From: a virus
Lineage: Duplodnaviria > Heunggongvirae > Uroviricota > Caudoviricetes
DNA: 43,002 bases
Strand: one strand, 5' to 3'
Virus record (IMG/VR): IMGVR_UViG_2740892012_000013
Location: 1 to 43,002 of that record
Shown here piece after piece: positions 5,931 through 37,520 of the stretch (positions are counted from its first letter, which is position 1; the number at the start of each line of letters is the position of its first letter). Under the pieces are notes generated by a model. That model searched no databases and was not told the DNA's origin. It saw nothing but the letters and a program-made list of their open reading frames with translations. Both the position numbers and the translations under genes were made by a program.

Positions 5931-5947
5931 ATTACCTTTCAGGTAAT
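5931..5947. promoter_or_regulatory. Operator-like 17-bp palindrome ATTACCTTTCAGGTAAT (perfect)
   Basis: Perfect 7-bp inverted repeat with 3-bp spacer; one of about 12 related sites in the window; in the divergent region between tailspike and the 6023 gene. Confidence 0.6.
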
Positions 5948-5983
5948 TTGCAAAACGTGCTGGATAGCAAACAAATTATTTGC

Positions 5984-6003
5984 TACTGTATAAATATACA
6001 GTT
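5984..6003. promoter_or_regulatory. LexA (SOS) box candidate TACTGTATAAATATACAGTT
   Basis: CTGT-N8-ACAG with AT-rich spacer, about 17/20 to the E. coli consensus TACTGTATATATATACAGTA; ends 20 bp upstream of the ATG at 6023. Confidence 0.65.
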
Positions 6004-6022
6004 ATTGCATGGAGAAGATAAG

Positions 6023-6280
6023 ATGCAGCAGTATCACTATCCACTGGAAGACGGATTTACCGAAAGGATTCACACGCCGGGAGGCGTCAGGTCACTGGTG
6101 GAGGGATCGCACTTGATGAAATTACTCCGGGATCTCGATAAGGATGGATTTAATGTCGATGGCCCACTTGCCGAACTGACTGCACTGATTAACTACGTCA
6201 CCAGCTCACAGATGTCTATGCAGGATCTGCAAACACATCTCGACTATTGTGCCGAACAATTACGAAAACAAACCACATAA
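6023..6280 (+). CDS. Small protein homologous to the shared C-terminal domain of the two antirepressors (ORF6C-like); candidate SOS-controlled antirepressor module
   Basis: SD GGAGAAG before ATG; 85 aa ...RIHTPGGVRSLVEGSHLMKLLRDLDKDGFNVDGPLAELTALINYV... aligns with ...SLIHSPSGVLGLTENSLLMNLLNQLQEDGHDVSGAAAELTTMFCYIV... of 7749-8444 and 9710-10648. Confidence 0.5.
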   Translation: MQQYHYPLEDGFTERIHTPGGVRSLVEGSHLMKLLRDLDKDGFNVDGPLAELTALINYVTSSQMSMQDLQTHLDYCAEQLRKQTT

Positions 6281-6286
6281 AGAAAA

Positions 6287-6302
6287 GGCCGCGAAAGCGG
6301 CC
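6287..6302. terminator. Hairpin GGCCGCGAAAGCGGCC between convergent genes (bidirectional terminator candidate)
   Basis: Perfect 6-bp GC stem with GAAA loop just after the stop at 6280 and just before the stop at 6304; identical hairpin recurs at 9643-9658. Confidence 0.45.
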
Positions 6303-6303
6303 A

Positions 6304-6810
6304 TTAACAGTCGTAAAATTCTGGGTCCCACAAACTTGCATCGCGCGGCATGGATTCTAACTTTTTCAGCCGCAAAATTCTGTCACACTCGACAACTAAT
6401 TTTTGCTTCTGCTCGTCAATTTCTACTGTCTTATGCGCTGGTTCATCCCAATAATCCAGAAGGAAGGCATGGCGTTCAGATGTGACCAGATAAATCACAT
6501 ACACGTCACTGGTTGGGATCTTTTTATGCTTGTTAGTGGTCTTGTCTTTCTTCCCAGACGCCCAGTTTTTCCAGCATTGTTCCGTACCGCTCTCACCAAA
6601 CTTGTCAGTATAGTTTCCGATGTTTAAGTGAACGTGGCGTATGTGATATTCCAGCATCTCTTTCGGTGGATCTCGAAACAGAGTGTCCTTTCCGAAATCC
6701 TTATGATGACCGTAGCGCCAGTGATCTATGAACGCGTTTTTGATAGGTATTAGCTCAGGGTCCTTCCCAAAAATTCCAGGGTGAACCAACCCCTGGAATT
6801 TATTCGGCAT
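6304..6810 (-). CDS. YafO-family-like toxin candidate (paralog 1)
   Basis: From ATG at 6810: ...FIDHWRYGHHKDFGKDTLFRDP...HIRHVHLNIGNY...YVIYLV...AFLLDYWDEPAH; pattern matches my recollection of E. coli YafO (GRDALYD...RVAHIHL...HLVYC...WLLIAILKPEPH). Paralog of 8881-9393. Confidence 0.55.
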   Translation of the reverse strand: MPNKFQGLVHPGIFGKDPELIPIKNAFIDHWRYGHHKDFGKDTLFRDPPKEMLEYHIRHVHLNIGNYTDKFGESGTEQCWKNWASGKKDKTTNKHKKIPTSDVYVIYLVTSERHAFLLDYWDEPAHKTVEIDEQKQKLVVECDRILRLKKLESMPRDASLWDPEFYDC

Positions 6811-7327
6811 CGTCGTAGAGCTCCTGAGCCATGTCTTCAGCAGTGCGTGCAAACATCCTGCGCGAGATTGCATGGGATTTCTCTACGGACATCTTTGGGA
6901 CCTCATGCATAACAAGTTGATGAGTTTTCTCATCAACTTGAAGTGGCTTGTATAAACGTTGCCACCTTTCGTTAATTTTATCCTTAAAGCCAGCGAAACC
7001 ACTTTCCTGACTCTTGTATCCAAAATGAGATAAAGCCAAATTCCTTTCCATTTCATTCCTAATGTACTCAGCAAGGTTGCAGTGGAATACTTCCCCTTGT
7101 TTTTTTAGGCATGCTTCATGGTCTGTAACACTGTGACGGCTCTCATATAAGTAAATGCGATAGGAATTTTTATTATCCTCTTCTTCATAATTTCTAATCG
7201 CATCAGCAGTTGCCATAGCTGCAGCATAAGCGGCTGCTTCAATCACCATCTCTTGCTCTTTTTCTTTTTCAGGCCTTTTCAAGGCAAAGCGTCTATGCCT
7301 CATCGCTGTAACTCTCTTCGTGTTCAT
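6800..7327 (-). CDS. Hypothetical protein, upstream partner of YafO-like paralog 1 (candidate antitoxin/regulator)
   Basis: ATG at 7327 with SD GGGGGTG; 175 aa, acidic C-terminus; 3' end overlaps toxin-candidate start by 11 nt; no family recognised. Confidence 0.45.
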   Translation of the reverse strand: MNTKRVTAMRHRRFALKRPEKEKEQEMVIEAAAYAAAMATADAIRNYEEEDNKNSYRIYLYESRHSVTDHEACLKKQGEVFHCNLAEYIRNEMERNLALSHFGYKSQESGFAGFKDKINERWQRLYKPLQVDEKTHQLVMHEVPKMSVEKSHAISRRMFARTAEDMAQELYDDAE

Positions 7328-7338
7328 GGGCACCCCCA

Positions 7339-7355
7339 ACTACCTTTAGGGTAAA
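7339..7355. promoter_or_regulatory. Operator-like palindrome, imperfect (ACTACCTTTAGGGTAAA)
   Basis: Matches ATTACCT-N3-AGGTAAT at most positions; immediately upstream of the 7327 start. Confidence 0.4.
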
Positions 7356-7463
7356 CATTCTATCGAAAGTATACGCTCACTGGCAAAAAAATAGGCAGGT
7401 ATTTTCTGAAATGGGATCAATCAAACCACATAGGGTTGAAATGACGTGAGTTATGCATTTATC

Positions 7464-7480
7464 ATTACCTTTGCGGTAAA
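7464..7480. promoter_or_regulatory. Operator-like palindrome (ATTACCTTTGCGGTAAA)
   Basis: Left half-site perfect, right half 5/7; in the 7328-7748 divergent intergenic region. Confidence 0.45.
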
Positions 7481-36037: not shown

Positions 36038-36052
36038 GATTAATCTCCGCTA

Positions 36053-36253
36053 TCAGCTTGAATGTTGTGGGGAGGAATTAATCATGATCTGCTTAATCTC
36101 TGCCCTGATGCGACGGTTTGACTCCATGGTGCACTCAACACAGTGTCCGTTGTAAACCCAGCGTTCACTGTCATGTCCGTGCTTACATGGTTTTCCGGTG
36201 TAGTAGCGTTTAAGTCCGCGCTTTGCGGCATCAATACGTGTAATGATTTCCAT
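36053..36253 (-). CDS. Small zinc-ribbon protein at the cII position
   Basis: ATG at 36253; 66 aa with KRYYTGKPCKHGHDSERWVYNGHCVEC (Cys/His cluster). Confidence 0.45.
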   Translation of the reverse strand: MEIITRIDAAKRGLKRYYTGKPCKHGHDSERWVYNGHCVECTMESNRRIRAEIKQIMINSSPQHSS

Positions 36254-36332
36254 GGTAAGCCCTGTTATTAGTATTGGGATTACGGTTATTTTGTGCTGAC
36301 ACAAAAAAAAGATCAACCAGATTTGGTTTTTT

Positions 36333-36349
36333 ATTACCTTTGAGGTACG
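36333..36349. promoter_or_regulatory. Operator-like palindrome ATTACCTTTGAGGTACG
   Basis: Left half perfect, right half 5/7; lies between a hairpin downstream of the Cro-like gene and the Zn-ribbon gene. Confidence 0.45.
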
Positions 36350-36403
36350 AATAGATATGAAAAGACCGCCGGATGGCGGTCTACAGAGGGTTGTTGCCAG
36401 ATA

Positions 36404-36634
36404 TCATGAGTAGAAGAAGTATGCCAGTTCCGCTTTTGAGCGCAGCCATTGTCTTGTTTTACATGCTTTAAAAAGCCCATTCATCAATACCTTACCTGGC
36501 ATTTTGCGCTTACCTGTTAAGTGAGTCTGGATATAGTGACTCGTCGTTCCGGCTTCCTGTGCGAAGGCTTCACGCTCATCCGGAGTAAGTGCAAGCCAGT
36601 GCTTTTTGAAATCGAAATGTCCGTTATCGCTCAT
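36404..36634 (-). CDS. Cro-like HTH DNA-binding protein
   Basis: 76 aa; HTH-like segment EAFAQEAGTTSHYIQTHLTGKR; first gene leftward from the divergent operator region. Confidence 0.5.
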   Translation of the reverse strand: MSDNGHFDFKKHWLALTPDEREAFAQEAGTTSHYIQTHLTGKRKMPGKVLMNGLFKACKTRQWLRSKAELAYFFYS

Positions 36635-36679
36635 AGCTATTGCCTGATATTTATTTCAGATAATAAATATTCACCCATA

Positions 36680-36734
36680 AGGTAACAAAAATCAAGGATA
36701 GTTACCTATGGGGTGCATTTACCTGTTGGGTAAT
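36680..36734. promoter_or_regulatory. Divergent immunity-region operators (clustered half-sites)
   Basis: AGGTAAC (36680-36686), GTTACCTATGGGGTGCA (36701-36717) and TTTACCTGTTGGGTAAT (36718-36734) in the 154-bp gap between Cro-like and repressor genes. Confidence 0.55.
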
Positions 36735-36788
36735 ATTGCTTTAAATTGAATCATCTACTGATTCATATATGAGGCGATTTTCCAGAAA

Positions 36789-37373
36789 ATGAAAAGTATC
36801 CAGGACGTCCGCAGGCAAAATCTCAACGACTTGATCGACCGTGAATTCAATGGTGTTCAGACGCGGATGGCAGAAAAACTTGGAACTCAGGCAAATCTGG
36901 TAAACCGCTGGGCTCTTGGCAAGAAGGTTATCGGCGACCAGGTTGCGCGAAAAATTGAAGCTGCCGCCAATAAACCCCGTAACTGGCTTGATATCGATCG
37001 CTCGCTTTCTCAGGAAGGTTTTCAGCCTGTCGGCCCAAGCGACATTGGTCAGCTGGCAGCTCACAACCTGGAACGCTGGATGAGTGAAAGCCGCGACCTT
37101 TCAACTCAGGGAAAACTTCACCGCGCATCCGGCGTCGCCCAGGTGACAATCAGCCGCCTGTTAAACAATGAGGTCAGCGTTTCCATTTCCACCCTGGAGA
37201 ATGTTGCATCCGCATTCGGGCGTCACGGATATGAACTACTGATTCACCCGCACGACCCTGCGACTATCAACTATGACCGCTCACGCTACGCATTGTTACC
37301 CGAAACCGAGAAAGCAAAGATCGAAAGTTACATTGAATTTGTCATCAACCAGAACGAAAAAAACAAACAATAA
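36789..37373 (+). CDS. Prophage repressor candidate: tandem HTH (XRE-like) protein without S24 peptidase domain
   Basis: Two HTH-like segments (...TRMAEKLGTQANLVNRWALGKK... and ...LHRASGVAQVTISRLLNNE...); no GDSM-type Ser/Lys autocleavage motif; cI position, divergent from Cro-like gene. Confidence 0.6.
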   Translation: MKSIQDVRRQNLNDLIDREFNGVQTRMAEKLGTQANLVNRWALGKKVIGDQVARKIEAAANKPRNWLDIDRSLSQEGFQPVGPSDIGQLAAHNLERWMSESRDLSTQGKLHRASGVAQVTISRLLNNEVSVSISTLENVASAFGRHGYELLIHPHDPATINYDRSRYALLPETEKAKIESYIEFVINQNEKNKQ

Positions 37374-37393
37374 AACCATATTTTTCAGTAAGT

Positions 37394-37420
37394 AAGCCGC
37401 CTTATGGCGGCTTTTTTATT
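37394..37420 (+). terminator. Rho-independent terminator after repressor gene
   Basis: AAGCCGCC-TTAT-GGCGGCTT followed by TTTTATT. Confidence 0.7.
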
Positions 37421-37429
37421 GCCTATTCG

Positions 37430-37520
37430 ATTACCTAACGGGTAATTTTTTTAACTCATATCTATTGACATCAAACCATATACGCATAATTATTACCTCA
37501 ACGGTAACAGACCGAGGTAA
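37430..37520 (+). promoter_or_regulatory. Early-left promoter candidate flanked by operators
   Basis: Operator ATTACCTAACGGGTAAT (37430-37446); -35 TTGACA (37465-37470); 16-17 bp spacer; -10 TAATTAT (about 37487-37493); operator ATTACCTCAACGGTAAC (37492-37508) overlapping -10/+1; extra half-site AGGTAAC (37514-37520). Confidence 0.6.

Follow-up and report, generated by a model that had tools for sequence, protein, structure and literature searches.

Two described phage systems provide the closest comparison for the operator-like palindromes analysed here, which are distributed through a 43,002-nucleotide (nt) stretch of viral DNA (IMG/VR record IMGVR_UViG_2740892012_000013, positions 1 to 43,002; hereafter the window). 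In the first, Salmonella phage epsilon15, the RefSeq record (NC_004775) carries seven features labelled 'protein_bind: repressor, lysogeny' with the sequence ATTACC-N5-GGTAAT. They are located before terS, before the head operon, in the gap between gp19 (ant) and the tailspike gene, at three early-left positions beside the repressor gene and at one position after the replication genes. In the second, the Rep–Ant switch of Salmonella phage SPC32H (PDB 5D50, 5D4Z), the repressor Rep binds palindromic sites as a tetramer in which the DNA-binding pairs derive from different dimers, and it is dismantled by a tetrameric antirepressor, Ant (PMC9638917, PMC9986798, summarising Kim et al. 2016). The C-terminal domain of Rep is described as a looping-type tetramerisation fold, and its mechanism of repression 'has not been extensively characterized' (PMC9638917, PMC9986798). 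The window is a complete epsilon15-like (Uetakevirus) prophage whose nearest relatives are phiV10 and TL-2011b, with 95–98 % identity across the immunity and early regions and an orientation opposite to that of those records. Judged from its sequence, it is an ordinary member of the epsilon15/SPC32H-type Rep-operator immunity system, since the same sites are already annotated in epsilon15, and every feature that defines the system at this level was found in it. We consider it highly probable that its 15 palindromes serve as operators for Rep, the immunity repressor encoded by the prophage itself, and that Rep would silence dispersed transcription units until induction is driven by Ant.

An earlier note on this DNA had reported about a dozen copies of a 17-bp palindrome, ATTACCT-N3-AGGTAAT, lying between genes and at promoters. 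All 12 positions that it named hold a copy, the one at 36701 being weak, whilst three further sites (30007, 30025 and 36670) had been overlooked, giving a total of 15 by weight matrix. Two copies match the 17-bp pattern exactly (5931 and 34387), three have one mismatch (8510, 26826 and 37430), five have two (7464, 34325, 36333, 36718 and 37492) and one has three (7339); the weakest copy, at 36701, has five mismatches and scores 10.8 bits. With up to three mismatches allowed, the pattern was matched 14 times against an expectation of 1.32, and 0 of 100 shuffles reached that number. The core TTACCNNNNNGGTAA (TTACC-N5-GGTAA) was present in ten exact and four one-mismatch copies, 14 in all, versus 0.73 expected and no more than three in any shuffle. 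We also used a symmetrised weight matrix (window consensus ATTACCTTAAAGGTAAT, 17.2 bits), in which nearly all information resides in two 5-bp arms and the centre is AT-rich and variable. This matrix identified 15 sites of at least 10.8 bits, spanning 5931–37508 and occupying ten separate intergenic gaps (Table 1). A search of complete E. coli genomes found no exact copy of the prophage that carried RefSeq gene calls (top match 76 % coverage), and gene limits were therefore our own calls from open reading frames (ORFs) and relatives; with this curated gene set, 7.3 % of the window is non-coding. All 15 matrix sites fall within that fraction, confirming the intergenic placement described previously, and all matches of 9.8 bits or less are coding. 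Markov shuffles of the window yielded a mean of 1.13 matrix matches of at least 10 bits, so that the shuffle-controlled matrix scan which the earlier note had called for places the frequency of the motif above chance. Phage lambda, used as a control, contained two matrix matches with a maximum of 10.6 bits. A chance origin of the palindromes was ruled out by the shuffles, the lambda control and the strictly intergenic location. One match from the three-mismatch scan, at 13624, was rejected as a chance occurrence (intragenic, 6.3 bits).

Table 1. Operator-like sites, regulatory genes and associated features of the window (coordinates in window numbering; a dot denotes a feature without strand)
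Feature	Coordinates	Strand	Score (bits)	Context or supporting match
Operator-like palindrome ATTACCTTTCAGGTAAT	5931..5947	.	24.3	Gap between tailspike gene (ATG 5827, -) and ant (ATG 6023, +); exact
LexA (SOS) box TACTGTATAAATATACAGTT	5984..6003	.		Upstream of ant; conserved in 5 genomes
ant, small SPC32H-type antirepressor	6023..6280	+		PDB 5D50_E, E 1.3e-47
Operator-like site	7339..7355	.	18.3	12 nt before ATG 7327 of two-gene accessory module
Operator-like site	7464..7480	.	21.3	Adjoins -10 of (+) promoter-like site 7436..7465
Operator-like site	8510..8526	.	23.8	41 nt upstream of ATG 8568; three-gene accessory module 8568-9636
immI ant	9710-10648	-		P22_AR_N domain; SPC32H-type Ant-like domain at end
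sar antisense RNA	10650-10717	+		
arc	10721-10888	-		
Mnt-like Arc-domain protein	10979-11440	+		Divergent
Operator-like site	26826..26842	.	22.5	Gap between head operon (gp3-like, ATG 26736, -) and tRNA-Arg (27164-27240, +)
Two tandem operator-like sites, 18 bp apart	30007-30023 + 30025-30041	.	12.8 + 18.6	
Operator pair, 62 bp apart	34325-34341 + 34387-34403	.	23.0 and 21.7 for the pair	After replication genes
Operator-like site	36333..36349	.	17.5	Directly after terminator 36382-36363 of cro-like gene, before next early-right gene
Cro-like small regulator	36404..36634	-		Divergent from rep; phrog_35 'transcriptional repressor', E 5.6e-13
Three operator-like sites	36670-36686, 36701-36717 (weak), 36718-36734	.	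15.1, 10.8, 20.0	Divergent gap between rep and cro-like gene
rep, immunity repressor	36789..37373	+		N-terminal helix-turn-helix (HTH), middle HTH-like domain, C-terminal tetramerisation/Ant-binding region
Operator pair, 62 bp apart	37430-37446 + 37492-37508	.		Bracketing early-left promoter
Integrase gene	41746-43002	-		

Position conservation was assessed across the window, TL-2011b, phiV10, epsilon15, SPC32H, Klebsiella BUCT711 and the prophage loci L085–L087, each for the part of the genome that it covers. A core scan of the first five detected sites at all of the places annotated in epsilon15, with approximately 14–15 sites per genome. The 5931 site is orthologous to the epsilon15 'repressor' feature at 19895–19911, the 26826 site to that at 2931–2947, the tandem 30007/30025 pair to that at 12–27, the 34325/34387 pair to that at 35906–35922 and the early-left pair to the features within 32479–32632. 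The dispersed positions at terS, the head operon, the ant/tailspike gap, the early-left pair, the rep/cro gap and the post-replication pair are all kept among the relatives. Beyond its annotation, epsilon15 displayed sites (24704, 33341, 33358, 33388 and 35969) between the repressor gene and gp39, ahead of the lysis operon and as a second post-replication member. The same scan of the relatives revealed an additional site before int, also absent from the epsilon15 annotation; it is a one-mismatch palindrome, TTACCTTAAAGGTAT, located approximately 57 bp upstream of int in all relatives (position 135 in L001, 26870 in L002, 26882 in epsilon15 and 26960 in SPC32H), and the equivalent position falls just beyond the right end of the window (43002). 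The 7464 site was also found in phiV10 (20497) and TL-2011b (34385), and the 36333 site has an equivalent in phiV10 at 33112. The phiV10 record annotates none of the palindromes. In sum, the window shares with epsilon15 the consensus, the dispersed positions and a homologous repressor, but differs in that its Rep is only about 42 % identical to the epsilon15 protein (gp38), that the epsilon15 record lists seven sites and that further sites, located at accessory modules, occur in the window (7339, 7464 and 8510).

When the early-left region was aligned across eight genomes or loci (Escherichia, Salmonella, Raoultella and Serratia), the invariant blocks consisted almost entirely of half-sites, the -35 and the -10, and the head-operon and ant/tailspike sites were conserved in like manner across relatives, the former as far as Serratia. 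The motif was present in relatives from Escherichia, Salmonella, Klebsiella, Raoultella and Serratia, and it occupied the same places even where Rep is only 42–52 % identical to that of the window (Klebsiella BUCT711 and Serratia). The recognition helix is kept among Rep homologues, with N36, R40 and W41 invariant. Sodalis phiSG1, whose portal protein is 58 % identical but which lacks a Rep homologue, showed no motif enrichment. We also retrieved 80 IMG/VR loci carrying Rep, which were uninformative because their Rep is 100 % identical to that of the window. The proposal in the earlier note, that a single repressor recognizes sites spread through the genome, gains support from the epsilon15 record, in which the same palindrome is labelled as repressor-binding at orthologous positions. 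A literature text search for the motif or 'repressor binding site' returned nothing relevant, and the paper describing vB_EcoP_ZX5 predicts promoters and names no operator.

Mapping the sites relative to promoters and gene starts showed that many overlap or adjoin sigma70-like hexamers, as previously proposed. Five promoter-like sites are involved: 34409..34382, 36688..36660 and 7386..7357 on the minus strand, and 37465..37493 and 7436..7465 on the plus strand. The palindrome at 34387–34403 fills the spacer of the first, and that at 36670–36686 fills the spacer of the second, which serves the cro-like gene. The 7386..7357 and 7436..7465 sites are divergent, and the -10 of each is directly followed by a palindrome (7339 and 7464, respectively). 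A weaker candidate, TTGGCG-18-TAATAT, adjoins the 8510 site (8/12 matches, read by eye and below the scan threshold). At the post-replication pair, the 34325–34341 site sits 2 nt before the ATG at 34322 and covers the ribosome-binding site, whilst the tandem 30007/30025 sites lie between a terminator (30077–30060) and the start of terS (~30005, minus strand). The presence of three sites in the divergent region between the repressor and Cro-like genes was borne out, with 36701 and 36718 located toward rep. The promoter that the earlier note had placed at 37465 proved to be the conserved early-left promoter, bracketed by two sites: its TTGACA (37465–37470) and AATTAT -10 (37488–37493) are separated by a 17-bp spacer, the rep terminator (37394–37413) lies upstream of the 37430 site, the second site begins at the end of the -10, and the first early-left gene starts at 37527.

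Spacing between neighbouring sites is also constrained. Exactly 62 bp, centre to centre, separates neighbours in 14 cases across eight genomes or loci, and the early-left and post-replication pairs account for such spacing in nearly every genome. For the post-replication pair, the 62-bp spacing is kept in six further genomes or loci and is 63 bp in Klebsiella BUCT711. The other recurring distances are 17–18 bp and 47–48 bp, the latter being a layout of the rep/cro gap common to all relatives.

The identity of the repressor was examined through its homologues. Rep aligned over its length with SPC32H Rep (PDB 5D50_A; phmmer against PDB, E 4e-42, residues 1–190 to 2–197), the homology covering the N-terminal DNA-binding, middle dimerisation and C-terminal tetramerisation/Ant-binding parts, and its sequence matches that of the phiV10 repressor at 100 % identity; both results support the earlier suggestion that the product of 36789–37373 is the repressor in question. 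The only solved relatives in PDB are SPC32H Rep chains. Pfam matches in Rep were restricted to HTH_3, HTH_26, LacI-like and YdaS-like domains, and no match to the self-cleavage domain Peptidase_S24 was found in Rep or in 86 homologues. The window thus resembles the SPC32H switch in having a full-length Rep homologue, an 87 % identical Ant with an upstream LexA box, and no S24 domain, and the SPC32H genome carries the same palindromes. The LexA box is the sole strong match in the window, where none is expected. A LexA site reportedly overlaps the ant promoter, approximately 50 bp from the 5931 site. Differences from SPC32H are that Rep has diverged whereas Ant is nearly unchanged, and that the window has two additional antirepressor modules in which the C-terminal domain resembles Ant. 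Across epsilon15 and SPC32H, the Rep proteins are 41–42 % identical to that of the window; beside an Ant as similar as that of SPC32H, this is uneven divergence for proteins that bind one another.

The genes of this phage family are arranged on both strands in numerous short units that have separate promoters. If the palindromes are Rep operators, each unit would be controlled through an operator of its own in a promoter spacer, directly after a -10 or over a ribosome-binding site. Rep, being of the SPC32H/epsilon15 type, would act as a tetramer and would not be cleaved upon SOS induction. At any given palindrome, two paired HTH domains would make the contact, the centres of the half-sites being separated by 10 bp, and bound Rep would block access of RNA polymerase, or the ribosome-binding region, at each small unit. 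Steric repression by Rep tetramers is likely because the sites overlap or adjoin promoter hexamers, and operators in these three kinds of position would thus allow Rep to silence each unit by occupancy. As 62 bp corresponds to approximately six helical turns, paired sites at this distance lie on the same face of the helix, and a single Rep tetramer can probably use its two DNA-binding pairs to hold both sites and clamp the promoter between them. Upon induction, LexA cleavage would permit the small Ant to be made, and Ant would then strip the DNA of Rep tetramers. The earlier note had also suggested control of a tRNA-island promoter, which is plausible.

Three observations weigh against assigning the sites to Rep in this way. 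No convincing sigma70 promoter could be placed by eye over the 5931, 26826 or 30007/30025 sites. None of the collected Rep homologues, from Serratia, Raoultella, E. coli and Klebsiella, has an altered recognition helix; as helix and motif are both invariant, they offer no contrast in covariation, and the sole contrast is that of presence versus absence in Sodalis phiSG1. Finally, all relatives encode both Rep and the Cro-like protein, and for that reason the comparison cannot tell which of the two is the binder. The Cro-like protein, the positional homologue of epsilon15 gp39, could be the sole or main binder, or both proteins could bind as in lambda, with the dispersed sites serving to down-regulate genes in the lytic phase. 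It is a small HTH regulator of 76 aa encoded divergently from rep with three sites in between, and lambdoid CI and Cro are generally known to share operators. We nevertheless regard this explanation as improbable: it was to the repressor that the epsilon15 curators attributed these sites, palindrome binding by Rep is reported to involve a tetramer (PMC9638917), and pairs phased at 62 bp are easier to reconcile with a tetramer than with a small dimer of Cro. Sharing of operators with the Cro-like protein within the rep/cro gap is likely, but as an explanation of the whole set it is unlikely.

Much less probable still is that another phage regulator, such as the gp49-like 'transcriptional regulator' (30313–30654) or a PerC-like activator, activates or represses late genes through the palindromes. 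Several sites do precede late operons (terS, head and tailspike), and a second conserved element, TATGTGGTT, beside the late-operon sites suggests additional factors; however, the sites that are strongest and best conserved flank the early-left promoter and occupy the rep/cro gap, the classical place of immunity operators, and nothing ties the gp49-like or PerC-like proteins to the palindrome sequence. The notion that the repeats act as RNA hairpins or terminators, or as recombination 'boundary' sequences between exchangeable modules, is barely credible even though the sites stand at module borders, often directly after terminators, and ATTACCT-N3-AGGTAAT can form a 7-bp hairpin, for only 6 of 329 arm deviations from the consensus are compensated on the opposite arm (and it is therefore sequence rather than pairing that is conserved), no U-run follows any of the palindromes, the centre is variable and AT-rich, and the sites keep fixed registers with -35 and -10 hexamers as well as 62-bp phasing. 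It was rejected on account of the uncompensated deviations and the fixed promoter register.

With Rep retained as the probable binder, the system may be set beside other phages in which repressor sites are numerous. The C1 repressor of P1 acts at numerous operators scattered along the genome, one of which, Op51, lies at the c4-icd-ant (immI) operon, and these operators are asymmetric 17-mers. P1 has, and the window would have, a primary repressor with operators at many operons, among them a module of C4 antisense RNA and antirepressor (7464 here), but the P1 operators differ in sequence and are asymmetric, whereas the window sites have two-fold symmetry and their binder would be an HTH tetramer. 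We placed the window system outside the P1 C1 family because its sites are symmetric and its protein is different; C1 is not known as a relative of Rep, and the two were set apart without direct homology comparison. Lambda, with tripartite left and right operators (OL/OR) and CI-mediated looping, likewise has three sites between divergent repressor and cro-like genes and operators that overlap promoters, and cooperativity at paired sites is a likely further similarity. In contrast to lambda, Rep has no domain for RecA-stimulated cleavage, the window pairs are 62 bp apart around one promoter rather than 2.3 kb apart, and the operators, instead of being limited to OL and OR of the immunity region, form 15 sites in ten gaps. 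The lack of a cleavage domain and the sites beyond the immunity region indicate that this is not a lambda-type CI system. The stoperators of mycobacteriophage L5, recognized by gp71, are also numerous genome-wide sites for a single repressor, but they are asymmetric 13-bp sequences inside transcribed regions that block elongation in an orientation-dependent manner, whilst the window sites are symmetric, intergenic and located on promoters, and do not form a stoperator system.

Several further features of the window concern antirepression. Between 7436 and 8444, a promoter-like site with a Rep palindrome (7436–7480) is followed by isrK (7516–7591), a C4 antisense RNA (7616–7701) and a Bro-N gene (7749–8444), the product of which ends in an 80-residue Ant-like domain. 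This layout resembles the immI operon of P1, where c4 precedes ant under the primary repressor. In addition, 9710–11440 is a P22-type immI module inside an epsilon15-like phage (Table 1). The Rep-binding Ant domain (phrog_450) is represented in three proteins, namely the free-standing, LexA-controlled Ant (6023–6280) and the fusions at 8187–8444 and 9710–9955. The fusion domains are 36–37 % identical to the free-standing Ant and almost identical to one another, and their near-identity implies an inverted DNA repeat of approximately 250 bp. Three differently controlled antirepressors may thus converge on one repressor.

A second recurrent sequence, the 9-mer AACCACATA (TATGTGGTT when read in the direction of the late genes), has five exact copies on one strand, at 5892, 7424, 26775, 34346 and 6271 (+), four of which begin 40–52 bp ahead of the point where a palindrome core starts. 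It was also found in epsilon15 (2990 and 24753) and SPC32H (3233). Relatives from E. coli and Salmonella retain the copy before the head operon, which in Serratia is nearly conserved; 5 nt further on there is either a half-site, GGTAAT, or a complete operator (TGGTT-N5-GGTAA or TGGTT-N5-TTACC). The 9-mer could be the site of a second regulator or a leader element. A broader scheme would have Rep as a fixed-geometry silencer, combining the 62-bp clamp with a second factor at late operons and three independent, signal-specific antirepressor routes to induction. Within it, the single and tandem sites of the late operons would work with a putative factor recognizing the conserved TATGTGGTT or TGGTT-N5-GGTAA hybrid element beside them. 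As for the antirepressors, one would respond to LexA, another to the C4 antisense RNA together with Rep, and the third to Arc and the sar RNA. Taken jointly, these propositions are tentative, and we regard the combination as rather unlikely.

Other observations relate to accessory and replication genes. The two-gene accessory modules 7327–6304 (minus strand) and 8568–9393 (plus strand) are paralogous; in each, the gene for an unknown protein precedes that for a phrog_1651 protein, and the phrog_1651 protein of the second module is YafO-toxin-like with a score below the Pfam cutoff. As a Rep palindrome stands ahead of each module (7339 and 8510), expression on induction rather than in the lysogen is suggested. 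Three adjacent tandem arrays at 35601–35732 (12 bp × 2.4; 24 bp × 2.6, with internal dyads; 18 bp × 2.8) are contained within a DnaT-like replication gene (35222–36037), and look like origin iterons within an initiator gene, as in lambda O. The tRNA-Arg(TCT) gene (27164–27240, plus strand) overlaps an ORF on the opposite strand (27170–27421), the counterpart of which is annotated in phiV10 as the coding sequence p04; this coding sequence may be spurious.

The palindrome system is already known for this phage family through the public, curated epsilon15 record, and the 62-bp clamp may likewise already be present in the SPC32H literature; the finding opens no new question by itself. What the window adds is a 15-site operator map, compared with the seven sites annotated in epsilon15, together with the strict 62-bp phasing and the operators on accessory modules. 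Such a map is useful for annotation, for phage engineering and for the design of chromatin immunoprecipitation and electrophoretic mobility shift experiments with Rep. For the biology of the family, these data suggest that the epsilon15/SPC32H immunity logic operates in phiV10-type prophages, a group that occurs commonly in E. coli (O157 among them) and supplies typing and reporter phages; under this logic a non-cleavable repressor would keep each small transcription unit off via its own operator.

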